In this document: piece after piece, positions 1,838 through 63,900 of the stretch
Numbering within the stretch: position 1 is the stretch's first letter
Layout: each line of letters opens with the position of its first letter
Assembly (NCBI GenBank): GCA_965199495.1
Contig: CBDASK010000003.1
Location: 3,872,001 to 3,936,000, forward strand
DNA length: 64,000 bases
DNA from: Abditibacterium sp.
GTDB lineage: Bacteria > Armatimonadota > Abditibacteriia > Abditibacteriales > Abditibacteriaceae
Direction: 5' to 3'
Notes under the pieces: model-generated
The model's input: the letters and a program-made list of their open reading frames with translations, nothing else
What the model was told of the DNA's origin: nothing
Database searches by the model: none
Position numbers and translations under genes: made by a program

Positions 1838-2896
1838 GTGAAATTAATTTCTCATCGCCCGCGCGTGGCCGTCATCGGCTACGGATTCTGGGGCCGCGCC
1901 GCGCATAGCCCTTTAATTCAAATGGCACCCGCTCTCGAACTGCGCGGAGTGGCTTCGTCCGACGCGGTCAAGCGCGCGCAAATCGAAAACGATTTGGATT
2001 GCCACGCCTATGCTTCGTTTGACGAAGTGATCGCCGACTCAAACGTTGATGTCGTCGTGTTAGCCACGCCGACGCACACTCATGCGCCGCTCGCGATTGC
2101 GGCTTTGAATGCGGGCAAGCACGTCGTGACCGATAAAGCGATGTGCCTGTCGCTCGCCGAATGCGACGCGATGATCGAGGCCGCGCGCACCAACGACAAA
2201 TTGCTGACGGTTTTTCAGAACCGGCGACGCGACGGCGATTTTCTGACAGTTCAAAAATTGATCGGCGACGGCGAGTTGGGCGAAGTCAACTGGATCGAAA
2301 TGGCGTGGCAGGGCTTTGGCCCGTGGGGCAGTTGGCGCGGCGAGCGCGCCAAAGGCGGCGGGCGCTTTTATGATTTGGGCGCGCACTTGATCGATCAATT
2401 GTTGGCGCTTTTTCCCGACCCAATTGAGAGCGTTTACTGCCGGATGCAACGCGATTTCGCCGATATGGACGTGGAAAGCGAGGCTTTGATTATCGTCAAC
2501 TTTGCCGGTGGCTCTACGGGGCGACCGCGCACCGGCATTTGCGATTTGTCGAGTTTGTGCGCGATTAGCAAACCGCGTTTTCTGGTGCATGGCAGCGCGG
2601 CGACGTTTTGCAAAAGCGGACTCGATCCGCAGGAAGACGCGCTCAAAGCGGGCGATATTGATGCGGCGGTCGAAGCGCCCGAAAATTATGGATTGCTGAA
2701 AAGCAACGCGGGCGAGCGCCGCGTGCCGACCCTACCGGGCCGTTGGCGCGATTTCTACGAAAATCTGGGCGCCGTCCTGACGCAGGGCGAGGCGCCGCTT
2801 GTGCCCATCGAAGATTCGCGCCGCGCCATGAGCGTGATTGACGCGGCGTTGCAAGCGGCCACAAGCGGCGAAGTCGTTCATTTTGATGTGCGATAG
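1838..2896 (+). CDS. Gfo/Idh/MocA family oxidoreductase (YdgJ/IolW-like)
   Basis: VIGYGFWG Rossmann motif, AGKHVVTDKA, VFQNRR, YDLGAHLIDQ. Confidence 0.92.
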   Translation: MKLISHRPRVAVIGYGFWGRAAHSPLIQMAPALELRGVASSDAVKRAQIENDLDCHAYASFDEVIADSNVDVVVLATPTHTHAPLAIAALNAGKHVVTDKAMCLSLAECDAMIEAARTNDKLLTVFQNRRRDGDFLTVQKLIGDGELGEVNWIEMAWQGFGPWGSWRGERAKGGGRFYDLGAHLIDQLLALFPDPIESVYCRMQRDFADMDVESEALIIVNFAGGSTGRPRTGICDLSSLCAISKPRFLVHGSAATFCKSGLDPQEDALKAGDIDAAVEAPENYGLLKSNAGERRVPTLPGRWRDFYENLGAVLTQGEAPLVPIEDSRRAMSVIDAALQAATSGEVVHFDVR

Positions 2897-2944
2897 AAAC
2901 TATCGCTCTCCATTGTGAAAGGCTGTATTACAAAACGCCCGCGA

Positions 2945-3451
2945 TTAACGACGAATCGCGGGTGTTCTTGGTTTGGGCACTTGGGCTTCCAGCAGTTCGA
3001 TAATGCGATCTTGTTGCTGCAACAGTTGTTGGTTTTGCTGCACCAAAATTTGGTTTTGTGCGGTCTGCAAAACCATGAAACGCAGCATCGCTTCCGAGAC
3101 CGCTTGCGTGGCCTGATCGGCGGTCTGGGCTTGATTGCGCAACTGATAATAATCGTTCAGCAATTGCCCGATGGCGGCGCGCGCCAGTTCAGGCGTAGTC
3201 ACGGCCTGCCCGTAAGTCAGCAGCAAATTATCGGCGTTCTGAGTGCGCTCGGAGTTTTGGATGGATTGCGCCAGCGAGCCAGCCGTCACGGCCTGACCCG
3301 TTTGAATCGTGGGCGTTTGCGCGGCCAAATTGGGGTTGCGCGGGCCAACCGGTTGAGCCGTGGCTGTCGCCGACAGAGCAGCCACGCCGCCGCAGAGGAG
3401 CAAAAGTGTGGTAAGGCGCGGCGCAGAAAAACAAGAACGAGGGGAAAACAT
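2945..3451 (-). CDS. Hypothetical secreted Gln-rich protein
   Basis: Signal-peptide-like N-terminus (LLLLCGGVAALSATATA-Q), Gln-rich coiled-coil-like C-terminus; fills gap between neighbouring genes. Confidence 0.7.
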   Translation of the reverse strand: MFSPRSCFSAPRLTTLLLLCGGVAALSATATAQPVGPRNPNLAAQTPTIQTGQAVTAGSLAQSIQNSERTQNADNLLLTYGQAVTTPELARAAIGQLLNDYYQLRNQAQTADQATQAVSEAMLRFMVLQTAQNQILVQQNQQLLQQQDRIIELLEAQVPKPRTPAIRR

Positions 3452-3598
3452 AGTTGGAGCAGTTTGACCGTTGATAACCGAGTTTGAGGCAGTTTTAGCG
3501 AAATGTCTAATGCAAATCGTCAGCGTTATTCAAATTGCGCCGAAAGGAAGTTTCTGTGCTGTGATTAACTCTGCGTTTCCCTGTTGCAAATTCCCCTT

Positions 3599-7388: not shown

Positions 7389-8572
7389 ACCAATCCGATG
7401 AAGAACTCTTGCCTTTTAACAAGGTCGCGTTGCTGTTGGGTTGGTTTCAACTCGGCGGCGCGGAACGGCAAGCGTTTTTGTTGGCGCGCGAATTATACGC
7501 GCGCGGCGTGGCCGTCGAGATGTGGGCTTTTGAAAGCGATGGCACGCGCGCTGGCGACGATGTGACCACGTTGTGCGATGCCGCCGGAATTGCGTGGCGC
7601 ACTTTGCCGCGACCGATGGGCAAAAGTTCGTTAGTCGCGAATTTGCTCAGTTTATGGCGCGTGTTTTGGGCCATGCGCAACGCGCGCGCCGACGTGATAT
7701 TGGGTTATACGTTGCTGCCCAATGTCATAGTTGGTCTGATGTGGCGCGCTTGCAATGCGCGCGCGTTTTTGTGGGGCCAACGTTCGGGCGATTACGAGTT
7801 CGTCGGGCATCGTTTAGAGCGTATAGCCGTTAGTCGCACGCGCGTTTTTACTTCTAACTCGCATCACGCCGCGCAGTTTTTGCAGCAGTCTTACGGCGTG
7901 GCTGCTGATGCCGTTCACGTCATTCCCAACGGATTGTATTTGAAAGCGCCTCTGCGGACGCGTTATGCTTGGCGGGGCGAATTGCAATCGAGCGAAACGC
8001 GCGTTATCACGTCAATGGTGGCGCATCTCTGCGGTTACAAAGACCACGCGATGCTGGTGCGGGCGTGGGCGCGCGTTGTCAATTGGGAGCGCGCCAATGG
8101 GCGCGCCGAAGACGAAATGCCGTTGCTGGTGTTGGCCGGGCGTTTTGAAGACGCAACCGACGAAGTTCGTCAACTGATTGATTCGTTTCATCTTGGGCGA
8201 TACGTCAAACTGTTGGGCGCCGTCGAAGATGTCACCGGCTTGCTGGAAGCGAGCGATTTATGCGCATTTTGCTCCCAAGTTGAGGGCGTGCCCAACGGCG
8301 TTTTGGAAGCGATGGCGTGTGGTTTAGCGGTTGTCGGCTCCGATATCCCCGGTGTGCGCGAGGCTGTTGGCGAAGAAAACGCGGCGTTTCTGGCGCCTTC
8401 GGGCGATGACGAGGCGCTCAGCCACTTGTTATTACGCTTCCTGAATGACGCCTCACTGCGCCAAAAAGTCGGCCAAGCCAACCGCCGCCGCACAGCCACG
8501 TCGCATTCGCCTTCCGCTTTGTGCGAGCGTTATCTGGCCCTTATCAACGCGGAATTGTCCGCAAGGAACTAA
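7385..8572 (+). CDS. Glycosyltransferase family 4
   Basis: GGAERQ, VIPNG, EGVPNGVLEAMACG. Confidence 0.92.
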   Translation: MNQSDEELLPFNKVALLLGWFQLGGAERQAFLLARELYARGVAVEMWAFESDGTRAGDDVTTLCDAAGIAWRTLPRPMGKSSLVANLLSLWRVFWAMRNARADVILGYTLLPNVIVGLMWRACNARAFLWGQRSGDYEFVGHRLERIAVSRTRVFTSNSHHAAQFLQQSYGVAADAVHVIPNGLYLKAPLRTRYAWRGELQSSETRVITSMVAHLCGYKDHAMLVRAWARVVNWERANGRAEDEMPLLVLAGRFEDATDEVRQLIDSFHLGRYVKLLGAVEDVTGLLEASDLCAFCSQVEGVPNGVLEAMACGLAVVGSDIPGVREAVGEENAAFLAPSGDDEALSHLLLRFLNDASLRQKVGQANRRRTATSHSPSALCERYLALINAELSARN

Positions 8573-12620: not shown

Positions 12621-13574
12621 ATGACATTCACCGATTCGTCACCAACGATTAGCGTCGTGATTCCGACTTATAATTCGGGCGCTTTGCTCAAACAAACGCT
12701 CGATTCGGCGTTGAATCAAACCCTCGCGCCGCTCGAAATACTCGTCGTTGACGACGGCTCGACCGATGGCACAGCCGACTGGATCGAGGCGAATTATGGC
12801 GCGCGCGTGCGCGTGATTCGGCAGCGCAACGGCGGCGTGGCTGCGGCACGCAATACGGGTTGGCGCGCGGCGCGCGGCGAGTGGATCGCGTTTTTAGATC
12901 ACGACGATGTCTGGCACTGCGACAAATTAGAACGCTTGCTCGATGCAGCCACGGCGACGAGGTCGGCGACGACGGCTTCGCCTGTGGGCGTGGTTTATGG
13001 GCGTTGGCGCGAAGTGGACGAACGCGGACAGCCGTTGCCCGCGTCGGCGCAATTGACGCGACAAAAACGGTGGCACGGCGCGAGCGGTTATGTTTTTGGT
13101 TGGCTCTTTGGCTGGCGTTGCCCGATAGTTTCGATGAGCGTGCCCATCGTGCGGCGCGATTTGTTGGAACAAATCGGCGGCTTCGATTCGCGTTGCGTGC
13201 CGTGCGACGATTGGGATTTGTGGTTGCGTCTGGCGCGCGTTTGTCAGTTTGGTTTTGTGGACGAAACTCTGGTGGATTATCGCTGTTACGCGACGCAACA
13301 AAGTCGCGACGAAACCAAAGCGTTACGCGCGGCGCGGCGCGTTTTGGGCAAGCATCGGTTCGATTTGGCGACGCGACCGTTGCTGTTTTGGTGGTGGCTG
13401 TGGCTGGGCGCGTTCGGCGCTTCGCTCCCGGCTTATAATGCGGCCAAACGCGCTGATTCATGGAGCGCGTTTGCTAAAGCGTTGGCGCGCGCGATGCGGG
13501 CGCATCCGCTCGCGTTGCTGGCGCCGCAATGGTTGGCTTTGATTGGTAAGTTTGGACTGAAACGTCGCGATTAA
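12621..13574 (+). CDS. Glycosyltransferase family 2
   Basis: ISVVIPTYN, VDDGSTD, ARNTG, FLDHDD, DDWDLW; paralog of upstream GT2. Confidence 0.93.
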   Translation: MTFTDSSPTISVVIPTYNSGALLKQTLDSALNQTLAPLEILVVDDGSTDGTADWIEANYGARVRVIRQRNGGVAAARNTGWRAARGEWIAFLDHDDVWHCDKLERLLDAATATRSATTASPVGVVYGRWREVDERGQPLPASAQLTRQKRWHGASGYVFGWLFGWRCPIVSMSVPIVRRDLLEQIGGFDSRCVPCDDWDLWLRLARVCQFGFVDETLVDYRCYATQQSRDETKALRAARRVLGKHRFDLATRPLLFWWWLWLGAFGASLPAYNAAKRADSWSAFAKALARAMRAHPLALLAPQWLALIGKFGLKRRD

Positions 13575-13583: not shown

Positions 13584-15956
13584 TCAAGCGTCGGCTTTGA
13601 GCGCGCCCTGGGGCGCGATGACGCGGTAGACGCGCGTATCAGTGTCGTCGAAGGCGACGGGCAAATGTAGATGGTCGAGCAGTTTCATTTTCGAGGCGTC
13701 CAACTTTTTGTGAACCACGAAATAGCGCACGTCCAGTTTTTGAAGTTCGCGCAGCGCCGGGCCATAATCGAAACCGGGGCCGGGGACTTTGCCTATGGGT
13801 TCATTGGGCAGGAGGAAAATGTCGCTACTGAGCGCGCGCAGAAGCGGATTGTGCGCGGCGAGGGCGAACGCCTGCGGAGGACAACGCGAGACGATGCCAA
13901 CAATGGTGGCTTTTTCGTGCGTGACCTGCCAGCCTCCATAACGCTGGCTCAGAGCGACGGGCACATCCACGACGGCGTAATTTTGTGGGTCGTGCGCGAT
14001 GCGCTGGTAAAATGCGGGCACGCTGATGTCCGAAGTCGGAAACGGCCACGGCGCATACTCGAAAATCATCAGGCCCATCAGCCCCAGCGCCACAAGGGGT
14101 ACTATGGCGGCGCGGCGTTGGCGCACCGCACTTAAAAGTTGTTGCAATCCCACGGCGGCGAAGGGCGCACAACACATTAATACCAACACGCTCATACGCG
14201 GCGGCACGCGGAAGGCTTTGAAACCCGGCAGATAGGGCGTGAGCCAGTTGAACGGTAATTCGACGTTATGAATGCTCTCGAATGGCGACAGCGATAGCGC
14301 AAAGCGATTGGCCCAATCCAATATTTGTGTGGTGTTCCAGGGCGGATCGAGTCCGTTGCCGGGCGCGCCCAGAGCGGTCAGGTAAATCAGGGCGTTGTTT
14401 GCTCCACCATGAAGATAAATTGTGGGGCCAAAGGCGAAAACAAAGGCCGCAACGCCTGCGACGAACCACGGTAAAAACGCGCTTTGTTGTTCGCGCCCGC
14501 GACGCCAACAGAGCGGAAGCGCGCACAGCGCGAGAATACAAAAACCGGGCGTCACATTGGTTTCAACGCTATTGAACGGATTGTGCTTGCTCAATACCGG
14601 GTTCAATTTGCCGGGGGTAAGCCAACTGGACACGGCGATGGTGAACGTGCCCGACTCTGTCGAGCGTTTCATGTAAGACGCGCTACGACTTTCGCGCGCA
14701 AGGGGTATCAGCATCGGCGCCAGCAAAACCCCGCACACAGCCAACGCGCTCGCGGCGCTGGCGAGGCGTTGCCAGCGAAAGGCTTGCCCGGCCCGCCGCA
14801 GACTCCACTCGACGCCAATCCAGAGCGCGACGGCGACGAACGTGCCAAAGAGCAGATATTGCCAGTCGCACAAGCCCGCCAACGCCAGCGCCACGCCCGC
14901 TCCCAACACGGTGCGCGCGCGGCCATCGAGCAGGGCCGCATAAAAAAGGCCCGCGAAAACCGGCAGAAACTGCGCCGATGTCAGATTGGCGTGCCCCAAT
15001 CCGTGCATCATGAAATAAGGCGAAAACCCGAAAACCGGCGCGACCAAAAACGAGGCCAGACGCGCGCGCGTTAAGCCGCACGAAAGCCAGTAGGCCGCGA
15101 AAGCGCACAGCGCGGGCGTCAGTAAAAACAGCAGATTATAAGTTTCAACGGGCGAGAAAAAATGGAGCAACGGCCACGCCAGCGCGCAATCGAACCAGTT
15201 CATGGTGTGGAATAACAGCGGCACCGAAGACGGATAAAACAGGAGGTTGGTCGAAAGCAGCGGTGCGCCGGTTTGCAGCGCGTGCGAGAAATACCAGTTG
15301 TTCCACACGAAAACCCACGCATCGCCGCCATCACCCGCCAAAGCGCTGCTGAGTTGCTGCGCGACGGGCCACGTTAGCACAACCGAGAGCGCGAGGTAAG
15401 CCGCGAACACGAGGGGCCAGCCGCGCCACGCGACCGAAAAATCGGGTGCGACGGGCAACGGGCGCTCGCGTTTCGCTCTCGCTTCGCGCTCTGCGGCGGC
15501 GGCGTGGCTGCTCTTGAGAACAGCACTCGTTGGCAAAGGCTCGCGGTCGTCAACGACCAGCGTTTTGGCTAATCGGTCGTGCCAGCCACGGCGCAATGGA
15601 TCGGAGAGAATCGGCAGAAAACCGACTTTGAGCGGCAGGCACGCCAACGCGTAACCGCCAACGCGATAAAGCGCGCGACGGGCGTTCATCGGCTCGCCAT
15701 CGGCGGCGATGACGCGCACGCGCCACAACTGTTTGCCCGGCGTCTGCCCGCTCGACCAACCCCACCACAAATAACACCAGCACGCTATCGGACTCAGATA
15801 TTGCATCCGCGTTAGCCAGAGCAACGGGTCGGGCGAGAAGTAGGTCACGAAGCTGAGGGGGATCAGATGTGCCAACAACAAAAATAGGGCGTCGGTCGCC
15901 GAGGCCGCCCAACGCCGAAAGGGAGAGGCCAAGAAAACACCTTCAAAGGCAGACAT
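13584..15956 (-). CDS. RDD-domain protein fused to multi-TM (YfhO/GT-C-like) membrane protein
   Basis: N-terminal RRWAA..DA, GQTPGK..RVRV, RRGWHDRLAKTLVV (RDD); then many TM helices with GDGGDAWVFVWN and FRVPPR motifs. Confidence 0.75.
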   Translation of the reverse strand: MSAFEGVFLASPFRRWAASATDALFLLLAHLIPLSFVTYFSPDPLLWLTRMQYLSPIACWCYLWWGWSSGQTPGKQLWRVRVIAADGEPMNARRALYRVGGYALACLPLKVGFLPILSDPLRRGWHDRLAKTLVVDDREPLPTSAVLKSSHAAAAEREARAKRERPLPVAPDFSVAWRGWPLVFAAYLALSVVLTWPVAQQLSSALAGDGGDAWVFVWNNWYFSHALQTGAPLLSTNLLFYPSSVPLLFHTMNWFDCALAWPLLHFFSPVETYNLLFLLTPALCAFAAYWLSCGLTRARLASFLVAPVFGFSPYFMMHGLGHANLTSAQFLPVFAGLFYAALLDGRARTVLGAGVALALAGLCDWQYLLFGTFVAVALWIGVEWSLRRAGQAFRWQRLASAASALAVCGVLLAPMLIPLARESRSASYMKRSTESGTFTIAVSSWLTPGKLNPVLSKHNPFNSVETNVTPGFCILALCALPLCWRRGREQQSAFLPWFVAGVAAFVFAFGPTIYLHGGANNALIYLTALGAPGNGLDPPWNTTQILDWANRFALSLSPFESIHNVELPFNWLTPYLPGFKAFRVPPRMSVLVLMCCAPFAAVGLQQLLSAVRQRRAAIVPLVALGLMGLMIFEYAPWPFPTSDISVPAFYQRIAHDPQNYAVVDVPVALSQRYGGWQVTHEKATIVGIVSRCPPQAFALAAHNPLLRALSSDIFLLPNEPIGKVPGPGFDYGPALRELQKLDVRYFVVHKKLDASKMKLLDHLHLPVAFDDTDTRVYRVIAPQGALKADA

Positions 15957-16000: not shown

Positions 16001-17122
16001 TTACTTCAATGCCAACTCATACGCTTTCAATACGCCGCGCGCCTGCGCCTCGACGGTGAAACGCTGCGTCCAATTTTTGCCGCGTTGAATCAGTTCGTCG
16101 CGCAAATCGGCGTCGCGCATCATCAGTTCCAAACCATCGCGAATAGATTGCGTTTCGTAGGGATCAATTTTGACGGCGGCATCGCCCGCGACTTCGGGCA
16201 TCGAAGCGCGATTGCTCGTCAAAACCGGCGCGCCCGCCGCCATCGCTTCGATGATGGGCAAACCGAAACCCTCATACAAACTTGGATAAGCGAAAACCTG
16301 CGCGCCCGCGTAAAGCGCGGGCAGTTCCTCGTCCAAGACGTAGCCAGTGAAACGAATATCGGGATCGGTTTTTTGTAAGTCGTCGCCCCAGCCGGGTTTG
16401 CCGGTAATCACCAACTGTTGCAGCCACGTCGGGTTGGCGCGCTTGATTTGGCGAAACGCTTTGATCAAACGCGCCACGTTTTTGCGCGGCTGCAAAACGC
16501 CGACGCTCAAAACGTAGGGCGCGTCGGTCAAATCGTATTTGCGACGCAGTTCGGCGATTTGCGCGGGCGCAACCGGCGCACGAAAGCGGTCGTCGAGGCC
16601 AATCGTCGTCAGCGAAATTTTGTTGGGATTGACGCGCAGCGCCCGCGCGATTTCGTTTTTGCTGGAACGGCTTTCGGTTAGAATGCGCCGCGCGCGCCGG
16701 ACGGAAAGCGGCATCGCCAGATTCATAATCGCGCGATCTTTGGCGGGGAATGTTCGGGGTAAAGCGCGCCACACGACATCGTGAATCGTGGTCACGAACG
16801 GGCAGGGCAACGGCCCCGGCGCCAGATAATTAACGTGAACCAGCGCGGGCCGATTTTCCCATGCCCAGCGTGGCAAAGTCCACGCGCTCCACACGCGGCC
16901 ATTGCGCGCGGGCAAAACGTGCGTCGCAAAGCGCGATGGACTTGACGCCGTGGCTGCTACGATCAAACCGGCTTCGTCGGGCGCGTCGAGCAAAATATCG
17001 AATTCGTAGGGCGACGGCACGCGCGCCAGACCGCGCAGAAGTCCCAGCGTGTAAGTGCGGTCTCCGGTTTTGGGCTGGAGAATCGTGCGCGCGTCAATGG
17101 CGATGCGAGGAAGTGTTGGCAA
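16001..17122 (-). CDS. Glycosyltransferase family 4 (mannosyltransferase-like); start uncertain
   Basis: RIAIDAR, VTTIHD, VGVLQPRKN, PSLYEGFGLPIIEAMA. Confidence 0.92.
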   Translation of the reverse strand: MPTLPRIAIDARTILQPKTGDRTYTLGLLRGLARVPSPYEFDILLDAPDEAGLIVAATASSPSRFATHVLPARNGRVWSAWTLPRWAWENRPALVHVNYLAPGPLPCPFVTTIHDVVWRALPRTFPAKDRAIMNLAMPLSVRRARRILTESRSSKNEIARALRVNPNKISLTTIGLDDRFRAPVAPAQIAELRRKYDLTDAPYVLSVGVLQPRKNVARLIKAFRQIKRANPTWLQQLVITGKPGWGDDLQKTDPDIRFTGYVLDEELPALYAGAQVFAYPSLYEGFGLPIIEAMAAGAPVLTSNRASMPEVAGDAAVKIDPYETQSIRDGLELMMRDADLRDELIQRGKNWTQRFTVEAQARGVLKAYELALK

Positions 17123-20224: not shown

Positions 20225-20797
20225 ATGTTTTTGATCGTTGGTCTGGGCAATCCCGGTTTGCAATACGCGCGCACGCGCCACAACGCCGGTTGGTTCGTCA
20301 TTGACGAACTGGCGCGGCGTCACGAGGTTTCCCTCGTCAAAAAGAACGCCGATTATAAATTGGGACTTGGCTTCATGGGCGAACACAAAATTGGTTTAGT
20401 CAAGCCGCAAACTTACATGAACGATTCGGGGCGCGCGGTCGCGTCTCTCCAGCATTTTTATCGTCTGGAAATCGCGCAAATTTTAGTTTTGACCGACGAT
20501 TTAAATTTGCCCGTCGGCAAACTGCGTCTGCGCGGCAACGGCTCGGACGGCGGGCATAACGGCCTCAAATCCATCGCGCAAAGTTTGAACAGTCGCGATT
20601 ATGCGCGGTTGCGCATTGGCGTCGGCGAGCCACCGCGCGAGGAACGCGAACGCGCGGGCACCGCCAATTTCGTGTTGCGCCCGTTCAGCTCCGACGAATG
20701 GCCCCTTGTTGATGAAAACACCGCCCGCGCCGCCGACGCCGTGGCTGCATGGATCGAAGGCGGCGTCGAATACGCGATGAGCCGCTTTAACGGCTAA
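20225..20797 (+). CDS. pth: Peptidyl-tRNA hydrolase
   Basis: LIVGLGNPG, TRHNAG, KPQTYMN, GGHNGLKSI, RLRIGVG. Confidence 0.97.
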   Translation: MFLIVGLGNPGLQYARTRHNAGWFVIDELARRHEVSLVKKNADYKLGLGFMGEHKIGLVKPQTYMNDSGRAVASLQHFYRLEIAQILVLTDDLNLPVGKLRLRGNGSDGGHNGLKSIAQSLNSRDYARLRIGVGEPPREERERAGTANFVLRPFSSDEWPLVDENTARAADAVAAWIEGGVEYAMSRFNG

Positions 20798-22660: not shown

Positions 22661-22663
22661 AAG

Positions 22664-41425: not shown

Positions 41426-41461
41426 TGGCCCGTGGCTCTATAATTGGGAAACCACGGGCCA
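41426..41461. terminator. Intergenic hairpin
   Basis: tggcccgtgg...ccacgggcca. Confidence 0.45.
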
Positions 41462-41477: not shown

Positions 41478-42632
41478 CTAACGCGCCGAAAAACGGTAAA
41501 CCGTCGTCTGACGGTAAGTTTGTCCGGGACGCAGCGTTGTCGTCGGATACGCCGGATGGTTGGGCGAATCGGGATAGTGCTGCGCTTCCAACGCGAAGCC
41601 GCTACGCTTGGGATACAAACGCCCATATTTGCCATGCAGACCATCCAAGAAGTTACCGGTGTAAAGCTGCACGCCCGGTTCCGTCGTGTAAACGCGCAGT
41701 TCGCGCCCCGAAACTGGTTCGCGCACCGTCACGCCCAGTTTTAATTGACCGCTTTGATTGCGCAACACGAAGTTGTGATCGTAACCCGCGCCGTTTTTCA
41801 GTTGGGTGTTATCGTCGTTGATGCGCGCGCCAATGCGGTGGAAAGTGCGGAAATCGAACGGCGTTCCGGCCACGCGCGCCAATGGGCCAAGCGGAATCGA
41901 AGTCGGGTCAATCGGCGTATAGCGGTCAGCGTTGATTTTGACTTGATGATCCAAAATCGTTCCCAGACCGGCGCCGCGCAAGTTGAAATACGAGTGATTC
42001 GTCATGTTCAGAAGCGTGGGCGCGTCGGTGACGGCGCGATAATCAATGCGCAGTTCGTCGTCGTTTTGCCACGTATAACGCACGCGCACATTGACGTTGC
42101 CGGGATAGCTATTTTCACCCGCAGGCGAAAACAGCGTCAATTCCAGCGCCGGGCCGTTTTTGAGCATCATCGGCTTGGCGTTCCACAATTGTTTGTCGAA
42201 GCCCTTAATGCCGCCGTGCAGATGATTGACGCCGTTATTGACGGCCAATTTATAAGTTTTGCCATCGAGCGTGAAGCGGCCTTTGGCGATGCGATTGGCG
42301 TAGCGCCCGACGAGCGCGCCAAAATACGGACTTTTGTCCTCGTAACCTTTGAGCGTATCGAAGCCCAGAACGACGTCGCCGCGCACGCCATTTTTGTCGG
42401 GCACGCGGATCGCGGTCACGATGCCGCCGTAGTTGGTGATTTGCACCTGCGAGCCGCTCGCGTTGCGCAAGGTGTAAAGCGTGGCGACTTTGCCATCGGG
42501 CAACGCGCCAAAAGGCGCCTGAGTAATCGCGGCCTTTTCCATCATCGGCGCGGCATGGACGAATGAGGCGCCCAGTGCAGTGGCAGCCACGGCGACGGCG
42601 GGCATCGTGAATTTGGGGGAGAATCGAAGCAT
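41478..42632 (-). CDS. galM: Aldose 1-epimerase (galactose mutarotase) with signal peptide
   Basis: GRYANRIA, NHLHGG, NMTNHSYFNL, GYDHNF, EAQHYPDSPN. Confidence 0.94.
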   Translation of the reverse strand: MLRFSPKFTMPAVAVAATALGASFVHAAPMMEKAAITQAPFGALPDGKVATLYTLRNASGSQVQITNYGGIVTAIRVPDKNGVRGDVVLGFDTLKGYEDKSPYFGALVGRYANRIAKGRFTLDGKTYKLAVNNGVNHLHGGIKGFDKQLWNAKPMMLKNGPALELTLFSPAGENSYPGNVNVRVRYTWQNDDELRIDYRAVTDAPTLLNMTNHSYFNLRGAGLGTILDHQVKINADRYTPIDPTSIPLGPLARVAGTPFDFRTFHRIGARINDDNTQLKNGAGYDHNFVLRNQSGQLKLGVTVREPVSGRELRVYTTEPGVQLYTGNFLDGLHGKYGRLYPKRSGFALEAQHYPDSPNHPAYPTTTLRPGQTYRQTTVYRFSAR

Positions 42633-43933: not shown

Positions 43934-46852
43934 TTACTTGCCCGCACTAATCGTCACCGCGCCGCTTTGCAACCCATCCGAACTCGCGCGCAATACAATC
44001 GGCCCACTCTCGCCTTTCTTGGCGCGCACGATGACCAACGCCAAGCCATTAAACGCGCGCCGCGAATGTGAGTGAAACGCGGTTAAATCGGTGGCATCGC
44101 CGTTGTCGGTTGCCACGATTTCGCCGGGGCCGCTGATGGTAAAGTTCAATTCGTTGTGCGAACGCGGCACCATCAATCCCTGCGCGTCGGCGACTTTGAC
44201 GGTGACAAACGATAAATCCTTACCATCGTTTTTGATTTTATCGCGGTCGGCGTTCATCGCGATACGAGCAGCCACGCCGGTTGTCTTCACGGTGTCGCTC
44301 GCCCACTGTTTGCCGTTTTTATAGGTCACGACGCGCAGTTCGCCCGGCTGATAAACCACGTCGTCCCAGCGCAAACGATATTGGAATTCGCCTTTTTTGC
44401 GGCGGCCCAGACTTTTGCCGTTGAGAAAGAGTTCGGCTTCGTCGCCCGATGTGTAAACAATCACCGGCGTGACCTGACCGATTCTGTCCGGCCAATTCCA
44501 GTGCGGCAGAATGTGCGCCATCGGAAAGTCGGGGCGCCAGTGCGCCTGATAAATATAGAAGCGGTCTTTGGGGAAACCGGCCAAATCCACGATGCCGAAA
44601 TACGAACTGCGGGAGGGACTTTTGATGCGGCCAAACTCGGCCAACTGCTTTTCGGCGCGGGTGCGCTCGGCGGGATCGGAATAGTTGAGCGCGTTGGTCG
44701 GGTCGGCACTATACGGCGTCGGCTCGCCCAGATAATCGAAGCCCGTCCACACGAACTCGCCCGCGACGGCGGGATTGCGGTCTTGCGCTTCAAATTCCTT
44801 GTCGGGCAACGAACCCCACGGCACGGCGTAGAGATCGTAGGAACTGACCTGAAAATCGACTTCGGAATCTTCGGCCTTGTTGGTGGCCGGGAAGAAATAC
44901 TCGCCGCGCGACGAAATCGCCGACGCGGTTTCGCTGCCGAAAAGCGGGATCGTCGGGTGATTTTTGAGAAAAGCGGGATAGTTCTGCGGCTTGTAGTTGA
45001 AACCGAAAATATCGGTCGTCTCTTCAAACCCGTTGTCCGCCGCCTGAAAATAGTTGTTGCCGCTGCCGACCGGGCGCGTTGCGTCTTCGGAATGAAAGAT
45101 GTCGGTCAGGCGCCGCGAGATCGCCGCGCCCGCCGTTGTGCCTTGTTCGGGCACTTCGTTGCCCGAACTCCACGCGATCACGCTCGGATGATTGCGGTCG
45201 CGCCTCACGTAAGCGCGAATGTCTTTTTCGGCCCACTTATCGAACAAAGTCGCGTAGCCAGTCGGTTTTTTGGGAATAGTCCAGGTATCGGAAAACTCGT
45301 CCAACACCAAAATCCCCATCTCGTCGCACAAATCCAACAGTTCGGGATCGGGCGGATTATGCGAAGTTCGCAGCGCGTTCACGCCCATACTTTGCAAAAT
45401 TTGCAGTTGCCGCTGCGCCGCGCGCCGGTTCCACGCCGAACCCAGCGCGCCCAGATCGTGGTGCATGCAAACGCCCTGAATTTGCACGACTTCGCCGTTG
45501 AGCAAAAAACCTTTATCGGCGACCCACGCGATGTCGCGCACGCCAAACGGCGTGCTATAACGATCCAAAACTTGCTTGCCGTCTTTGATTTGCGTCACGA
45601 GCGTATAGCGATACGGGTCTTTCAAATTCCACTTGCGCGCGCCAAAAAACATCAGCGCATTGCTAACGGTTTGCGAGGCGCCCGCTTTGAGCGAAACCGG
45701 CGAATCGGTTTGCGCGACGACTTTGAGATTGGCGTCCAGAACCGTCGAAACCAGCCGCACATCGCGCGCTTTGGCGCCCTCGTTTTGCAGCGTCGTCTTG
45801 ATGCCGATGCGCGCCGGGCCAGCCTTTTTGGTGTTGCCATCGCCCACGCTTTGCGCGTCAACCTGCGTGCCCCAGTGCGCGACGTGAACCGGATTTGTCA
45901 GCGTCAAATGAACGTCGCGATAAATGCCGCCGCCGGGATACCAACGCGCCGAATCGGGCAAATTATCCAGCCGAATCGCCAGTTTATTTGGCGCGCCGGG
46001 TTTGATAAACGGCGTTAAATCGAGCGCCCACGACGCGTAGCCATAAGGCCAGCCGCCGACGTATTGGCCGTTGCACCAGACGCGGGCGTTCGACATCGCG
46101 CCGTCCATTTCGAGCAAAACGCGCTTGTTCGCGTCGTTAGCAGCCACGGCGAAGGTCTTGCGATACCAACCGACACCCGACCACGGCAATTTGCCGGTTT
46201 CGCCGGGCAAATTAATATCGAAATCGCCTTCGATGCCCCAGTCGTGCGGCAAATCGAGCAGACGCCAACTGCTGTCGTCGTAGTTCGCGCCCGTCGCGGC
46301 GGATTCGATGGGCGCGCCGATTTGCACGCCGACATCGCCCATGATGCCGCCCGCGCCCGCCGTGTTCTCGACCAAAACCGCGATTTCGTTGGGCGCGTTG
46401 GGTTTCCACGCGATTCCAATCGGCGCCTCAAAAGGCGAACTCCAGCCTTCATTGGTGCGTATTTTCTGGCCGTTGAGGTAAACCGTGGCGTTATCGTCTA
46501 CGCTGGCAAAGTGCAACGATTTCGGCGTCGTGGCTGAGGGCGCCAGCGTCGCGCGAAACCAACCGAACCCTTTTTGGCCGTTGAAAACATCATCGCCCGT
46601 CGCGACCGTTTTCCACTCGGCCTCGGCGGTATCCGCGCGCAAATCCGCCCTATCGTTGCCGCTTTTGAAGCGCCAATTTTCGATTTTGTAGCCGGTGCCC
46701 AACGGTTTGGCATCGGAGAAATCGCCCAGATGAAAGCGCCAGTTGTCGTCGAAGTTCAAGCGCTGTCTTGAACTGTTTTGTGAATGCGCGCTGGTGGGAG
46801 TCAAAGCCGCGCAAGCCAAAGCCAACGCGAGCGAATTGTGGGACAGTCTCAT
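43934..46852 (-). CDS. Glycoside hydrolase family 2 (beta-galactosidase-like), secreted
   Basis: LPHDW, RWYPGGGIYRDV, GVCMHHDLG, RTSHNP, RDRNHPSVIAWSSGNE, WTGFDYLGEP; start placed at ATG 46852. Confidence 0.93.
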   Translation of the reverse strand: MRLSHNSLALALACAALTPTSAHSQNSSRQRLNFDDNWRFHLGDFSDAKPLGTGYKIENWRFKSGNDRADLRADTAEAEWKTVATGDDVFNGQKGFGWFRATLAPSATTPKSLHFASVDDNATVYLNGQKIRTNEGWSSPFEAPIGIAWKPNAPNEIAVLVENTAGAGGIMGDVGVQIGAPIESAATGANYDDSSWRLLDLPHDWGIEGDFDINLPGETGKLPWSGVGWYRKTFAVAANDANKRVLLEMDGAMSNARVWCNGQYVGGWPYGYASWALDLTPFIKPGAPNKLAIRLDNLPDSARWYPGGGIYRDVHLTLTNPVHVAHWGTQVDAQSVGDGNTKKAGPARIGIKTTLQNEGAKARDVRLVSTVLDANLKVVAQTDSPVSLKAGASQTVSNALMFFGARKWNLKDPYRYTLVTQIKDGKQVLDRYSTPFGVRDIAWVADKGFLLNGEVVQIQGVCMHHDLGALGSAWNRRAAQRQLQILQSMGVNALRTSHNPPDPELLDLCDEMGILVLDEFSDTWTIPKKPTGYATLFDKWAEKDIRAYVRRDRNHPSVIAWSSGNEVPEQGTTAGAAISRRLTDIFHSEDATRPVGSGNNYFQAADNGFEETTDIFGFNYKPQNYPAFLKNHPTIPLFGSETASAISSRGEYFFPATNKAEDSEVDFQVSSYDLYAVPWGSLPDKEFEAQDRNPAVAGEFVWTGFDYLGEPTPYSADPTNALNYSDPAERTRAEKQLAEFGRIKSPSRSSYFGIVDLAGFPKDRFYIYQAHWRPDFPMAHILPHWNWPDRIGQVTPVIVYTSGDEAELFLNGKSLGRRKKGEFQYRLRWDDVVYQPGELRVVTYKNGKQWASDTVKTTGVAARIAMNADRDKIKNDGKDLSFVTVKVADAQGLMVPRSHNELNFTISGPGEIVATDNGDATDLTAFHSHSRRAFNGLALVIVRAKKGESGPIVLRASSDGLQSGAVTISAGK

Positions 46853-49977: not shown

Positions 49978-51471
49978 ATGAACCAAACTCCGCTTCTTTC
50001 GATGCGCGGCATCCGCAAAAGTTTTTCGGGTGTGGAAGTTTTGCATGGCGTTGATTTGACGCTCAATTCCGGCGAAGTGCTGGCTTTAATGGGCGAAAAC
50101 GGCGCGGGCAAGTCCACGTTGATGAAAATTCTCAATGGCGATTACACGCGCGACGGCGGCGAAATCGGAGTTGACGGGCAGATCGTCAACTTTGCTTCGC
50201 CGCGCGACGCCGAGGTCGCGGGCGTGCAGATGATTCATCAGGAATTGGCTTACGCGCCCGATCTGTCGGTCGCCGAAAATGTGTTGATGGGCCATCTGCC
50301 GCGCCGGGGCGGCTTCATGGTGGATTGGCCCGCCGCGCACGCAGCCACGGCGCAGGTGTTAAAGCGTCTCAAAGCTGATTTTAGTTCGCGCGACATCATG
50401 GGAAGTTTGAGCGTTGGGCAGCAACAGTTGGTCGAAATCGCCAAAGCGCTGTCGCGCGAGGCGCGCATTTTAGTCATGGACGAACCGACGGCGGCTTTAA
50501 CTTCGCGCGAAGTCAGTTTGCTTTTCGAGACGATTGCTGGTCTGCGCGCGCAGGGCGTGGGCATCGTTTATATTTCGCACCGCTTGGACGAAGTCGAGGA
50601 GATCGCTGACCGCGTGGCCGTCTTGCGCGACGGCGTGGCTGTGGGCGAGCAACCGATGAGCGCGGTTTCGCGCGCGCAAATCGTTCACATGATGGTCGGT
50701 CGCGAAGTCGAAAGCCACGCGAAGTCGCGCGGCGTGAACGAGCGCGAAATCGTGTTGCAGGTCGAAGGTTTGACGCGGCCCCATCGTTTCGAGGGCGTGA
50801 GTTTTTCCGTTCGTGCGGGCGAAATCGTCGGTTTATACGGACTTTTGGGCGCCGGACAAATGGACGTGATGCGCGCGTTGTTTGGTAGCCCCGCCGCCGC
50901 TGCGGGCGAAATTGTGATGAACGGGAATCGAGTTCGCGTGAACTCTGTGCCCGATGCGATTGGCGCGGGCATCGGTCTGGTTTCGGAAGATCGCAAGCGC
51001 GAAGGTTTGGTTTTGGGCATGAGCGTCTCGGACAATTTGACGCTGGGCAATTGGGATGTCGTGTCGAAAAACGGCATATTGAACCAGAAAGTTGAGATGG
51101 CTCGGACGGCGCACTGGACGCAACGCCTGGGCATTCGCGCGCGCGGGCCGTCGCAGCCCGTCGGCACGCTGAGCGGCGGCAACCAACAAAAAGTCGTTTT
51201 GGCGCGTTGGCTGGAGGCGGGCACTAAAGTGTTGCTGCTGGCCGAGCCGACGCGCGGCGTTGACGTGGGCGCACGCGCCGATATTTACGGCGTGTTGGAA
51301 GAACTGCGCGAGCAGGGCTTGGCCTTGGTAATGGTTTCGACCGACATGGAAGAAGTTTTGGCGCTGTCGGATCGGATTTTGGTGTTGGTACGCGGGCGCA
51401 TCGTGCGCGAGTTCGGGCGCGAAGAAGCGACGCAAGAACTGTTGCTGGCGAGCGCGGCGGGGCAGGAGTAG
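49978..51471 (+). CDS. Sugar ABC transporter ATP-binding protein
   Basis: GENGAGKST, MDEPT, LSGGNQQK, EPTRGVDVGA. Confidence 0.95.
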   Translation: MNQTPLLSMRGIRKSFSGVEVLHGVDLTLNSGEVLALMGENGAGKSTLMKILNGDYTRDGGEIGVDGQIVNFASPRDAEVAGVQMIHQELAYAPDLSVAENVLMGHLPRRGGFMVDWPAAHAATAQVLKRLKADFSSRDIMGSLSVGQQQLVEIAKALSREARILVMDEPTAALTSREVSLLFETIAGLRAQGVGIVYISHRLDEVEEIADRVAVLRDGVAVGEQPMSAVSRAQIVHMMVGREVESHAKSRGVNEREIVLQVEGLTRPHRFEGVSFSVRAGEIVGLYGLLGAGQMDVMRALFGSPAAAAGEIVMNGNRVRVNSVPDAIGAGIGLVSEDRKREGLVLGMSVSDNLTLGNWDVVSKNGILNQKVEMARTAHWTQRLGIRARGPSQPVGTLSGGNQQKVVLARWLEAGTKVLLLAEPTRGVDVGARADIYGVLEELREQGLALVMVSTDMEEVLALSDRILVLVRGRIVREFGREEATQELLLASAAGQE

Positions 51472-53918: not shown

Positions 53919-54572
53919 ATGGACACAACCGAACTGCTCAACGCGCTCGCCGACGAAATCCGCATTTGCCCGCTCTGCCGTCTCGCGCAAACGCGCATTC
54001 ACGCCGTCCCCGGCGATGGCAATACCAAAGCGGAAATTATGTTTGTAGGCGAGGGGCCGGGCCAGCAGGAAGACGAGACTGGGCATCCGTTTGTCGGCAA
54101 GTCGGGTAAACTGCTGACAACTGAGTTACGCAAAATTGGAATTACGCGCGATCAGGTGTTCGTCACCAACATCGTGAAGTGTCGTCCGCCGGGCAATCGC
54201 AACCCGTTGGCCGACGAAATCGCCGCGTGCAACGATTGGCTGAGCGCGCAAATCGCTTTGGTCGAGCCAAAATTTATCGTGATCGTGGGTGGGCCGAGTT
54301 TGAACACGCTGGTTTCCAAAGATTTACGGATAACCAAAGCGCGTTCGCGCGTCTTTCGCAAAGAAGGCATTTTGTTCATTCCGATTTTGCATCCCGCCGC
54401 CGCCTTGCGCAGTCCCGATACGATGAAACTATTTCTCGAAGATTTAGCCAATCTGAAAGATTTGCTGGGCCGCGATATTGAGGAAAACGAAATCACCGAC
54501 ATCGTGGACAAGCCCGCCGCCAAAGCAGCCACGGCGAGCGAGGAAGAGGGCGGCACGCTCAGTTTGTTTTAG
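53919..54572 (+). CDS. Uracil-DNA glycosylase family 4
   Basis: CPLC, GEGPG, PFVG, TNIVKCRPP.NR, HPAA. Confidence 0.94.
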   Translation: MDTTELLNALADEIRICPLCRLAQTRIHAVPGDGNTKAEIMFVGEGPGQQEDETGHPFVGKSGKLLTTELRKIGITRDQVFVTNIVKCRPPGNRNPLADEIAACNDWLSAQIALVEPKFIVIVGGPSLNTLVSKDLRITKARSRVFRKEGILFIPILHPAAALRSPDTMKLFLEDLANLKDLLGRDIEENEITDIVDKPAAKAATASEEEGGTLSLF

Positions 54573-59244: not shown

Positions 59245-59868
59245 CTAACTTTGATCTTCCGGCGTGGCTGCTGTTGGGCGCGGCCCGAATAATTGCGCCA
59301 TCGGCAATTTTAAACCTGCAAATAATTCGGGCGCGAACTCGCCCTCATCGGACAAACTCGCCTCGAAACGATATTCGCCTTCGACCAAATGAAACGCCTG
59401 AAATATCCAGTATTCGGGGTCAATCGTCCAGTAATATTTGACGCCAATTTCGGCGTAGACATCGAACTTGTAAAATCGGTCGGTGTTCTGGCTCGACGGC
59501 GAAACGATTTCGACGACTAAATCGGGCACGGCGCGCAGATATTTGCCGTTCTCGCTTTCGACAACCGCTTCGTCGTTGGTCGCATAATAAATCAAATCGG
59601 GAATCAGCGTGCGATAATTATCGATTTTCAAGTCCACGGGTTGCGGATAAAGCAAACCGTGTCCGCCGCCATCAATCCAAGCTTCGAGAAATTTGAGCAG
59701 ACGGCGGTAAAGTTTCTGGTGGCGAAGTGTAGGTGAGGGCATAAGAATGGGAATTCCGTCGTGCAGTTCGCGCAGTTTGTCGTCGGGCAGGGCGGCGATT
59801 TCGTCATACGTCCATTTTCTCTGGCCGTTAGCAGCCACGGCGGGCGGATGGGGCAATTCGGCAATCAT
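59245..59868 (-). CDS. Uma2 family (PD-(D/E)xK) endonuclease
   Basis: ELHDG, PSP...HQ, IPD, PDLVVEIVSPS, K..VYAEIGVKYYW; start at ATG 59868. Confidence 0.9.
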   Translation of the reverse strand: MIAELPHPPAVAANGQRKWTYDEIAALPDDKLRELHDGIPILMPSPTLRHQKLYRRLLKFLEAWIDGGGHGLLYPQPVDLKIDNYRTLIPDLIYYATNDEAVVESENGKYLRAVPDLVVEIVSPSSQNTDRFYKFDVYAEIGVKYYWTIDPEYWIFQAFHLVEGEYRFEASLSDEGEFAPELFAGLKLPMAQLFGPRPTAATPEDQS

Positions 59869-60759: not shown

Positions 60760-60764
60760 GCAGA

Positions 60765-60971
60765 GGTGCCAGCGAATAAATTCGCGGCTGGGGGGCTGAA
60801 GCCGGGCGTCCCCCTGCGGGGACGCGATTACATCTTGTCCGCGAAGGCGGACTTCCGGCTTTAGCCTCTCAGCCGCGAATTTATTCGCTGGCACCGGACG
60901 CAACTGCATCTTGTCCGCGCAGGCGGACTTCCGGCTTTAGCCTCTCAGCCGCGAATTTATTCGCTGGCACC
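60765..60971. repeat. Three-arm palindromic repeat cluster (GCCAGCGAATAAATTCGCGGCT family)
   Basis: Left arm 60765-60823 inverted to 60831-60895, which is directly duplicated at 60907-60971 (65 bp, one mismatch). Confidence 0.9.
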
Positions 60972-60990
60972 AACACGTCATACTTTACTT

Positions 60991-63900
60991 ATGTCGCAAT
61001 CCACCACTTTGCAAACGCCCGATGCCGACTTGCACATTAGAACCATTGATGGCGAGCCGACCACAGATGCCGAGATTTTGCCGCTGCAAAATGGTAAATT
61101 TCCCATTATCGGGTTGGGCGGTTCGGCGGGCGCTATCGAGCCGCTGCAAACCTTTTTTAGCAATATGCCGCCCAATCCCGGCATGGCGTTCGTGGTGATT
61201 ATGCACCTCTCGCCCGATTACGAAAGCAATCTCGATTCGATTTTGGCCAAGGTCACCAAAATGCCAGTGATTCAGGTCAACCAAAACCAGAAAATCGAAG
61301 CCAATCACGTTTACGTGATTCCGCCGACGCATTTGCTTTCGATGGAAGATACCCACATCGAGTTGGCGCAGTTGCAACGCGAAAACGGCAAGCGCGTCGC
61401 GGTTGACTTGTTCTTTCGCGCTCTGGCCGAATCGCAGGAAGCGCGCGCGATTTGTATCGTGTTATCGGGCACCGATTCCGATGGCTCGATTGGACTCAAG
61501 CGCGTCAAAGAGCGCGGCGGACTGACCATCGCGCAGGAACCCGACGAAGCGCAATACGACGAAATGCCGCGCAACGCCATCGAAACCGGCATGGTGGATT
61601 GGATTTTGCCGGTCGCGCAAATGCCCGCGCGTCTGCTCAAAATGTTGAGCAAAGAACCCTCGCTTCGGTTGCCGTCGGTGCATCCGCCGACCCAAGAAAG
61701 CGGAGGCGCCGACGCCGAAACCGCGTTGCGGCAAATTCTCGAATTTCTCGAAGCCAGCACCGGCCACAATTTTATTCATTACAAACGCGCCACGATTTTG
61801 CGGCGCCTCGCGCGCCGTTTGCAGGTCAACGGCTTGGAAGATTTGCCGTCGTATCTGGATTATATGCGCACCAACGCGGGCGAAAGCGTGGCGTTGTTGC
61901 AGGATTTGCTGATTAGCGTCACCAACTTTTTCCGCGATAAAACCGCGTTCGAGGCGCTCGAAATGATGTTGCCCTCGCTGTTGCGCGGCAAAAACGAGAA
62001 CGAGCAAATTCGGGTGTGGGTGTCCGGCTGCGCGACCGGCGAAGAAGCCTATTCGCTCGCGATGATTTTGGCCGAATACGTCGAGAATCACGCGCCCACG
62101 CTCAAAGTGCAGGTGTTTGCCACCGACATAGACACTGGCGCCATCGCCTTTGCGCGCGAGGGTTTGTATCCGACTTCGATTGTCGCCGACGTTTCGCCCG
62201 AACGATTGCGCCGCTTTTTCGTGCCCGAACAGGGCCGCTATCGCATTCGCAAAGACCTGCGCGAAACCGTGTTGTTCGCCGCGCACAACCTGCTGCGCGA
62301 CCCGCCGTTTTCGACGCTCGACTTGATTTCGTGCCGCAACCTGCTGATTTATTTCGGCAGCGAAGCGCAGGAACGCGTCTTCGATACTTTTCATTTCGCG
62401 CTGCGGCCCGGCGGCCATTTGATGTTGGGTTCGAGCGAAGCCGTCGGCGCTTCGCCGCTTTTTAGTCCCTTAGACAAACGCAACCGCATTTTCGAGCGCC
62501 GCGAAATGCCGCGCCCCGCGCTTCCGCTGCAAACTTTGCAAGTGCCAGCGTTGCCACGTCGCCGCAGCACGGCGATTTTGCCCGCGACTTTGCTGCCGCC
62601 CGCGACGCTTGGCGCCACGCCCGGCGACGCCGTGGCTGCACGCGCCGAGGTGCAGGAAGAACGCGGATTTTCTAATTTCGGCGAGCTGCATCTGCAACTT
62701 CTGGAAGAATACGCGCCGCCTTCGATTTTGGTCAACGAAGATTACGACATCGTTCATCTGTCCGACGGCGCCGGGCGATTTTTGCAGTGGGGCGGCGGCG
62801 AAGTCTCGATTAATCTGCTCAAAGTCGCGCCGCCCGAACTGCGTTTGGAACTGCAAACCGCGCTGTTTCAGGCGCTGCAAAGCGGCGAGCGCGTCGAAGT
62901 TCCGCAGTTGCCGGTGCGCACCGATGGCCAACTGCGTTCGGTTCGCCTGATGGTGCGCCCGCTCATGCGCGAGGGCGCGGGCCAGAGTTTTCTGCTGGTG
63001 ATTTTCGAGTTGCAAAGCGAAACGCCTCAACTCGCGCCCATCGCCGATGAGCCTGTCGCGCGCCGCCTCGAAACCGAGTTGCAGCACGTTCGCACCCAAC
63101 TCAAAGCGACTTCGCGGCAATACGAAGTTTCGACCGAAGAACTCAAAGCCTCCAACGAAGAGTTGCAGGCGATGAACGAAGAGTTGCGCAGCGCCACCGA
63201 AGAACTCGAAACCGGCAGGGAAGAGTTGCAATCGGTCAACGAAGAATTGATTACCGTCAACGCCGAGCTAAAACACAAAGTCGAGGAAGTCAGTCTGGCC
63301 AACAGCAACCTCAACAACTTGATGGCTTCGACCGAAATCGCCACGATTTTTCTGGATCGCGTGGGCCGCATCCGGCGCTACACGCCGCGCGCCATCGAAC
63401 TGTTTCACCTGATTCCGACCGACGTTGGCCGACCTCTGGCCGATTTGCGCCACAAATTTCGCTACGAAGATTGGGCCAGAGACGCGCAGAAAACCTTGGC
63501 CGATCTGTCGGTTATCGAACACGAAGTGCGCACGCAAGACGGCCAATGGTTTTTGTCGCGGATGCTGCCGTATCGCACCGTCGAAGACCACATTGATGGT
63601 GTGGTATTAACTTTCGTGGACATCACCGCGCGCAAGAACGCCGAGGAAGCCACGCGCTCCAGCGAAGAACGTTTTCGCCTGCTGGTCGGGGGCGTGCAGG
63701 ATTACGCGATTTTCCTGTTCGACGAAAACGGCACCATCACCAGTTGGAATTCGGGCGTCGAGCGCGTGTTGGGCTACCGACAATCGCAGTGGATCGGGCG
63801 CAACTGGAACATTTTGTTTCCGCCCGACGAGCGGTATAAATGCGCCGAAATTATGGAGCGGGCGCGCAATAACAACGGCGCGGTCAGCGAACGCTGGGAA

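Follow-up and report, generated by a model that had tools for sequence, protein, structure and literature searches.

About once per kilobase, and on either strand, a 64,000-nucleotide stretch of the chromosome of an Abditibacterium species (hereafter the window; C3:3,872,001-3,936,000 of the genome under study, G000) carries the non-palindromic word AGCCACG. Genome-wide, this is a DNA-level, clade-specific and strand-symmetric word that is sparse in small replicons and in island-like DNA. By analogy with the uptake signal sequences (USS) of Pasteurellaceae and the DNA uptake sequences (DUS) of Neisseriaceae, we favor the reading, at a probability of roughly 0.55, that the word is an independently evolved self-recognition sequence for natural transformation with a strand-directional step. 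The preliminary description of the window, made from its letters alone, had already named DUS/USS as the closest fit. That comparison drew support from codon shuffling, the lack of replichore polarity, scarcity in acquired DNA, clade restriction and dialects, silent-site conservation, competence genes and USS-like spacing, but it fared less well on coding density, which is higher, and on competence genes, which word-free relatives also have.

The word in the window and across the chromosome

The genome is 95% complete at 4.81 Mb, with a 4.72-Mb chromosome in a single contig (C3) and two further contigs of 25 and 65 kb (C1 and C2). Within the window, which encodes ordinary metabolism and sugar transport, AGCCACG or its complement CGTGGCT occurs 64 times (35 forward, 29 reverse; chance level 8.77 ± 2.94, maximum 17), and the exact 12-mer GCAGCCACGGCG occurs 11 times (mean 0.04, maximum 1, in 100 dinucleotide shuffles of the window). 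These counts, the positions and strands of all 11 12-mers and of the eight copies of the variant GCAGCCACGCC, and a chance level well under 1 for the 12-mer agree with the preliminary description, which had put the GC content at about 58% (measured, 56.5%) and the chance level of the 7-mer at about 12 (computed, about 9). As had also been claimed, the cores are nearly all intragenic, 63 of the 64 falling in genes by de novo gene calls. The claim that they are read in different frames holds in that all six are used, although two dominate (antisense frame 2, 28 cores; sense frame 2, 22; the rest 7, 4, 1 and 1), and the individual readings given as Ser-His-Gly at 11172 and 48389 and as Pro-Trp-Leu at 12420 and 54617 were correct. 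The sites in the window are:

2062..63654, both strands: span of the 64 dispersed AGCCACG/CGTGGCT cores (35 forward, 29 reverse), consensus (a)gCAGCCACG(G/C/T)CG
12945..12956, forward: full 12-mer GCAGCCACGGCG within a glycosyltransferase gene, its core encoding Ala-Ala-Thr
16946..16957, reverse: full 12-mer
20737..20748, reverse: full 12-mer, inside pth
23475..23486, forward: full 12-mer
33937..33948, forward: full 12-mer
42583..42594, forward: full 12-mer
46140..46151, forward: full 12-mer
50341..50352, forward: full 12-mer
54525..54536, forward: full 12-mer
59831..59842, forward: full 12-mer
62628..62639, reverse: full 12-mer
3359..3388, both strands: close intragenic inverted pair, core at 3359 (reverse) and GCAGCCACGCC at 3378 (forward)
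29605..29615, forward: GCAGCCACGCC variant
44268..44278, forward: GCAGCCACGCC variant
7895..7905, reverse: GCAGCCACGCC variant
12834..12844, reverse: GCAGCCACGCC variant
15501..15511, reverse: GCAGCCACGCC variant
33085..33095, reverse: GCAGCCACGCC variant
59261..59271, reverse: GCAGCCACGCC variant
41431..41437, reverse: sole core in the window outside called genes

On the chromosome, AGCCACG has 4,533 copies (2,256 forward, 2,277 reverse), and the commonest 10-, 11- and 12-mer of the genome all come from this word, the 12-mer alone being present 690 times against 3.9 expected from an order-3 Markov model. The consensus (a)gCAGCCACG(G/C/T)CG consists of a near-invariant AGCCAC, then G, C and G, with graded flanks: one-letter variants of the 12-mer seldom differ at positions 3-9, 11 or 12, position 10 may be any base but A, and position 1 is weakly constrained. 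We refer to CAGCCACGBCG as a strong site. Membership in inverted pairs was 53 of 426 for intergenic and 219 of 4,107 for coding sites, and the intergenic stems were longer.

The excess over chance persisted in two gene controls, 10 within-gene synonymous shuffles and 5 dicodon-conditional simulations. Genic copies of the 7-mer numbered 4,107 versus 734 (synonymous) or 1,701 (dicodon), those of the 11-mer CAGCCACGNCG 1,988 versus 56 or 154, and those of the 12-mer 622 versus 7 or 26. Ala-Ala-Thr codon triplets were spelled GCAGCCACG in 551 of 1,394 cases (11.5 expected), and Ala-Val-Ala triplets carried the word in 646 of 1,548 (18.0 expected); the word enters genes via rare codons. The excess over both controls, together with this triplet spelling, places the signal in the DNA and not in the protein, as the preliminary description had proposed. 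Intergenic sites (n = 352) yielded an identical consensus, which together with the codon and dicodon controls excludes an artefact of codon, codon-pair or peptide usage. An account in which such usage produced the word, and deletion between close direct repeats its spacing, could point to the dominance of two frames; it has next to no probability given the controls, the intergenic sites and the equal avoidance between identical and non-identical site variants described below.

Chi, which is read by RecBCD or AddAB, and the FtsK orienting polar sequences (KOPS) are words of established sequence and polarity that are likewise non-palindromic, orientation-dependent and over-represented. Replichore polarity had been named beforehand as the mark of such a site. 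The word has none (2,231:2,302, 49.2% leading; p = 0.30), which rules out a Chi/KOPS-type polar signal, and it further departs from these systems in that neither RecC nor AddB was found in G000. A control word that we take to be KOPS-like, GGGNAGGG, was split 299:81 (78.7% leading), a polarity of 79% that is optimistic because the replichore boundaries were derived from GGGNAGGG itself; its strand switches at 2.02 and 4.34 Mb, and a DnaA-motif gene lies at 2.027 Mb.

Depletion in acquired DNA, another expectation of the preliminary description, was observed: C1 and C2 held 0 and 1 strong sites versus 11.0 and 28.9 expected. Low-density stretches encode type I restriction-modification (RM) enzymes, a serine recombinase, Cas1/Cas3, capsid, portal, ParB and metal efflux proteins, and some biosynthetic genes too; these stretches were selected for their low density, and 36 of their 114 genes were scanned. 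Among the island-like regions of G000 (loci L163, L157 and L161) are a prophage near 4.24 Mb with capsid, portal and QueC/QueF-like genes, a helicase-methyltransferase-SNF2 defence-like cluster near 1.18 Mb, and Cas3/Cas1 near 2.76 Mb.

Clade restriction, dialects and orientation-specific spacing

Among 401 genomes of the phylum, CAGCCACGBCG was enriched only in G000 (2,113 copies), G011 (1,776) and G004 (720), which form one clade with support 100/100 in a ComEC tree of 13 genus genomes. In G006, G009 and G012, samples of 120-140 kb contained no comparable word. The consensus of G011 is that of G000, and G004 keeps the core but surrounds it with flanks of its own dialect, GACA(C/G)CAGCCACGTCC; the word has been gained and lost inside one genus. 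In G011 orthologues, 64 of 93 sites were unchanged versus 33% in same-peptide controls, and where the amino acids were identical 57 of 68 cores were unchanged versus 28.6 expected. Word sites lie in less conserved protein stretches (identity to outgroups 0.50-0.54 versus 0.62-0.65 overall), and DUS sites are likewise reported in less conserved protein regions (PMC2397512). Orthologue alignments contained 0-5 gapped sites per comparison, with no insertion at a G000 word.

The last result bears on an origin from a decayed mobile repeat of the repetitive extragenic palindromic (REP) or miniature inverted-repeat transposable element type. G004 would suit such an origin, since 61 of its 168 sampled sites form inverted pairs, many of them intergenic, with CTAC...GTAG between the arms, and the window does encode a REP-associated tyrosine transposase-like protein (RAYT). 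For G000 it is largely refuted, and we regard it as very improbable: 91% of sites are intragenic, all frames are used, the flanks are unrelated, nothing is inserted relative to orthologues, and decayed insertions would not stay conserved at silent sites. The RAYT gene (window 36743-37384, below the NCBIfam cut-off) is flanked by REPIN-like, near-identical inverted doublets starting GTAGTCTCGCC (window 36586-36670 and 37426-37510), which are unrelated to the AGCCACG word. A REP origin from this RAYT was rejected because these flanking repeats differ in sequence. G000 has a second repeat family with GTAGAGACACCGA, at about 155-160 copies in a k-mer scan, which is probably REP, and in G004 a tandem array (L017:1-160) comprises at least eight 21-bp units, each with the G004 dialect word.

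AGCCACG had the most even spacing among 43 7-mers of similar count (coefficient of variation 0.89, against a median of 1.10 for these words). Pairs of sites at 60-600 bp numbered 587 in the same and 1,137 in opposite orientation, against 1,175 expected for each (ratios 0.50 and 0.97). Between strong sites the ratios were 0.21 and 1.09, with a deficit that fades by 1-1.5 kb, and avoidance between same-orientation copies ranges over about 0.6-1 kb. Intragenic pairs kept the effect (0.44 and 0.51 for the same versus 0.83 and 0.93 for opposite orientation), the window itself held 8 same-orientation versus 22 opposite pairs (17 expected), and four abundant control 7-mers had same-orientation ratios of 1.07-1.22. 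Deletion between close direct repeats was rejected as the cause, as identical (0.19) and non-identical (0.21) strong variants avoid one another alike and other 9- and 11-mers that recur nearby in direct orientation are over-represented rather than depleted. One copy thus appears to make a further one superfluous only if both lie on one strand and less than about 1 kb apart, which suggests that the reading step is directional or single-stranded.

The same measurement on Pasteurellaceae USS (400 kb from two genomes, G440 and G442; L481-L500) gave 32 same-orientation versus 58 opposite pairs, with 57.8 expected (ratios 0.55 and 1.00; p = 0.008), and 36 metagenome USS loci pointed in the same direction. 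These data suggest that USS reading is directional in Pasteurellaceae too; a literature search aimed at USS strand directionality did not find it stated. This orientation pair-correlation is an inexpensive test on genome sequence; here it told USS apart from control words, and it is usable on any candidate word.

Even spacing and silent-site conservation are also what one would see if the word were the binding site of an abundant chromosome-organizing or nucleoid protein, with its spacing under selection, and the periodic spacing of the cyanobacterial highly iterated palindrome HIP1 has been interpreted as chromosome organization or nucleoid binding (PMC5861425). We consider this improbable for AGCCACG, since a binder of double-stranded DNA would not normally sense the orientation of a neighbor at 60-600 bp and only same-orientation copies avoid each other. 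Species dialects and the unrelated words of sister genera, described below, also suit self-recognition better than a nucleoid protein.

Uptake machinery and the case for an uptake sequence

If the word is an uptake sequence, a protein of the uptake path would prefer word-bearing DNA, the best lead being a pilus-tip or minor pilin at locus C3:861-881 kb. Preferred fragments would recombine more often, driving the word to about 1 per kb. A directional or single-strand-specific reader would let each strand saturate alone, at about 1 per 2.1 kb per strand, and inverted pairs, like the palindromes of sister genera, would serve both strands simultaneously.

The competence genes that the preliminary description had proposed to look for are present in G000, which encodes a type IV pilus; they include ComEC (above the NCBIfam cut-off), ComEA, DprA, PilB/PilT/PilC-like proteins and several secretins. 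The pilin cluster at C3:861-881 kb has four pilins and ends with two tandem PilX-like genes of about 1,300 aa. All three clade genomes have this duplication, and G006 and G009 have one copy of the gene at the corresponding position. Because G017, G131 and G226 also have tandem pairs, and G226 has a weak word only, the duplication is no more than a lead. A predicted model of the PilX-like protein (pLDDT 80) has an N-terminal pilin fold with middling Z scores (7o5y, 6.8; 6qvf, 6.0); Thermus ComZ was not among the structure matches listed, which does not exclude a likeness. Leads from a protein atlas were PilX_N, in 31% of members, and DUF4900, in 20-58%. ComEA differences were discarded as a receptor clue, the architecture being identical in the 7 of 11 genomes with an extracted protein. 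Elsewhere among the pilins, a 600-aa minor pilin (L066:7595-9448) is 49% identical between G000 and G011, where orthologues average 90%, and appears to be a hypervariable pilus component; about 45 DUF1559-type prepilin-like genes are dispersed over the G000 chromosome; and the named homologues of one G000 pilin, 43-52% identical, come from Abditibacterium utsteinense, Abditibacteriota and Abditibacteriaceae, which points to Abditibacteriaceae as the lineage of G000.

Sequence-specific DNA uptake has been described for two proteobacterial families (PMC7811141, PMC1939737). Like USS as portrayed there, the word is non-palindromic, occurs about once per kb on both strands without orientation bias, is mostly genic, has a core with graded flanks and is scarce in acquired DNA. 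It also shares the orientation-specific spacing measured here (0.50/0.97 for the word, 0.55/1.00 for USS). It differs from USS in its unrelated sequence and phylum, its GC-richness, its lack of AT-tract flanks and its greater density in coding DNA, and in our samples inverted pairs hold 7% of word sites versus 19% of USS sites. With DUS, whose receptor is ComP, it has in common clade restriction, species dialects, a conserved core, intergenic inverted pairs (many in G004) and a location in permissive protein regions (PMC3630211, PMC2397512). Unlike the word, 46% of sampled DUS lie in inverted pairs and the DUS sample had no orientation difference, and the word's dialect sites are not conserved between G000 and G004. 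The exact word was absent from the literature searched, outside of which lay most subscription papers and supplements, where k-mer tables might name it; among the papers listed, no link between Abditibacterium and uptake sequences, and no uptake sequence outside the two families, turned up.

Several observations weigh against an uptake sequence. The word is denser in coding (1.05/kb) than in non-coding DNA (0.53/kb), and DUS and USS prefer non-coding DNA (PMC1939737). AT-rich flanks as in USS are absent, close inverted pairs include only 333 of the 4,533 sites, and about 28 genome-maintenance genes located by motif had no clear excess of the word (uvrA, 6 versus 3.4 expected; gyrA, 0 versus 2.8; polA, 3 versus 2.8). 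Site conservation between G000 and G004 was at expectation (25 of 67 versus 24.3). The orientation effect was not clearly reproduced in samples of 210-290 kb from G011 and G004, which are too small or confounded for it, and DUS of Neisseria polysaccharea gave no separation (81 same versus 96 opposite pairs; 0.59 versus 0.70; p = 0.29), in a test blurred because 208 of 451 sites sit in inverted pairs. Competence genes are common to word-free relatives (ComEC in 13 of 13 genomes, ComEA in 12 of 13, and DprA, PilB/PilT and secretins in 5 of 5), which makes them necessary but not diagnostic. No receptor was identified, the ComP profile PF16732 having no match in a search in which the control also matched nowhere. 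Finally, within this genus the word goes together with the loss of AddAB, which an uptake model does not predict.

A possible break-repair signal and other dense words in the family

This coincidence is central to an alternative in which the word is a directional break-processing signal, Chi-like but without polarity, in a lineage without AddAB or RecBCD, and is read by a Dna2-like nuclease-helicase or a RecQ/RecJ-type path. A Chi-like word might lack replichore polarity because breaks caused by desiccation or UV are two-ended, each strand needing its own copy, and orientation-specific spacing suits a translocating reader. All 10 word-free genus genomes have AddB, which was found in 0 of the 3 word-bearing ones; an AddB-sized PF12705 protein was found in 0 of 10 word-bearing family genomes, and RecC in none of the 5 genomes searched (the Escherichia coli control matched). 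In G000 itself the search for AddB drew a blank, and AddA gave a match of only 22%. A Dna2-like gene is present in all four genomes with an asymmetric word (G000, G004, G011 and G017) and is missing from all 10 word-free genus genomes. The G000 gene (L177:9365-13630; C3:4111365-4115630) encodes a 1,421-aa Dna2-like protein with a PD-(D/E)XK nuclease and a superfamily 1 helicase, and it occurs where the genus lost AddAB.

We nevertheless judge this alternative unlikely. The AddB and Dna2-like contrasts stem from a small number of independent events in evolution. In G011, which retains the word, the Dna2-like gene carries a frameshift and was recovered only in part. The gene is absent from the six genomes with palindromic words; outside the four asymmetric-word genomes G016 alone has it, the other 22 being without. 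In G016, which has two Dna2-like homologues, a 27-kb sample contained no word; G013, G016 and G268 are without AddB, yet samples of 12-27 kb likewise showed none. USS has the spacing deficit, whereas E. coli Chi does not (8 versus 10.1 pairs, from 100 forward sites only and thus at low power). The characterized Dna2-like enzyme Bad recognizes junctions of single- and double-stranded DNA, and its abstract names no sequence (PMC7430649).

Words at roughly 1 per kb were found in 10 of 27 genomes of the family, seven of them outside the clade, and six of those seven carry palindromic words. The seventh, G017, has 1,425 + 1,387 matches to a pattern covering CGACCGTACT, often as close inverted pairs. 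The palindrome RAGTACTY is present in 2,695-4,371 copies in G066, G131, G164, G249, G014 and G018, and none of the remaining 25 of the 31 class genomes has more than 396; the consensus is aTCGAGTACTCGAt in G066 and GCAAGTACTTGC in G014, and G226 has a weak excess of AAGTACTT. In G002, G007, G010, G013, G015, G016 and G268 no word was seen in samples of 12-27 kb only, a soft negative because samples of this size are weak (z about 6 versus noise of about 5); G053 and G241 lay outside the word sampling. Individual loci in which these distinct hyper-abundant words can be seen, whether palindromic (TCGAGTACTCGA, GCAAGTACTTGC) or asymmetric (TCGACCGTACT), are L501-L504, L508 and L510 (G066, G017, G014 and G131).

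A wider reading, which we put forward tentatively and hold to be doubtful, is that Abditibacteriaceae are a third family with sequence-specific uptake of self-DNA, in which reading would be strand-directional, as also in Pasteurellaceae, and words would occur only where AddAB is missing. On this view its genera carry words unrelated to one another, asymmetric ones (CAGCCACG, TCGACCGTACT) beside palindromic ones (TCGAGTACTCGA, GCAAGTACTTGC), all near 1 per kb. Were this true, DUS/USS with their inverted pairs, and HIP-type palindromes, would all answer the same need for a tag on each strand. A case in Abditibacteriota, here in a soil-crust-type bacterium, with gain and loss in one genus and unrelated words in one family, offers ready-made comparisons that can help to find a new receptor and to decide between drive and selection as the force that spreads such words.

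The palindromic dense words of sister genera (aTCGAGTACTCGAt in G066, GCAAGTACTTGC in G014) resemble HIPs, which go with methyltransferases (PMC4390886), and HIP1 has itself been proposed as an uptake sequence (PMC13756078). The word of G000 might accordingly be linked to methylation, either created by repair in the manner of HIP1 or bearing a methylation mark for uptake of the Campylobacter type, with a conserved methyltransferase marking part of it. G000 does encode many methyltransferases. Several points make this link quite improbable: the G000 word is not palindromic, its graded consensus of 12 bases exceeds the usual length of a methyltransferase site, and 0 of 17 methyltransferase-like loci of G000 were common to the three clade genomes yet missing from both outgroups, in a comparison that covered the loci of four relatives and included one locus without an open reading frame. 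Matches outside the clade included g1056 (77% in G006) and g2770 and g366 (54% and 56% in G009). A DpnA-like gene was dismissed as a clade-specific methyltransferase in view of its 77% match in G006. Compared with HIP1 and the alternate HIPs of cyanobacteria, which are hyper-abundant, conserved in all frames and regularly spaced (PMC4390886, PMC13756078, PMC5861425), the word is similar in these respects, and sister genera g3 and g6 have palindromes of HIP-like appearance; the word of G000 differs in that it is no palindrome and that no clade-specific methyltransferase was found among the loci compared.

Two further observations concern the methyltransferases and RM systems of these genomes. 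At L113-L115, the DpnA-like methyltransferase is 85% conserved in the clade, and its partner genes differ between G000 and G011/G004. G000, which has many RM methyltransferases, avoids many palindromes to an extreme degree (TTCGAA, 176 versus 7,515 expected; CGGCCG, 32 versus 4,780; CTCGAG, 40 versus 4,165), with GGWCC, GTAC and CTAG also avoided, and palindrome avoidance is seen in its relatives as well.

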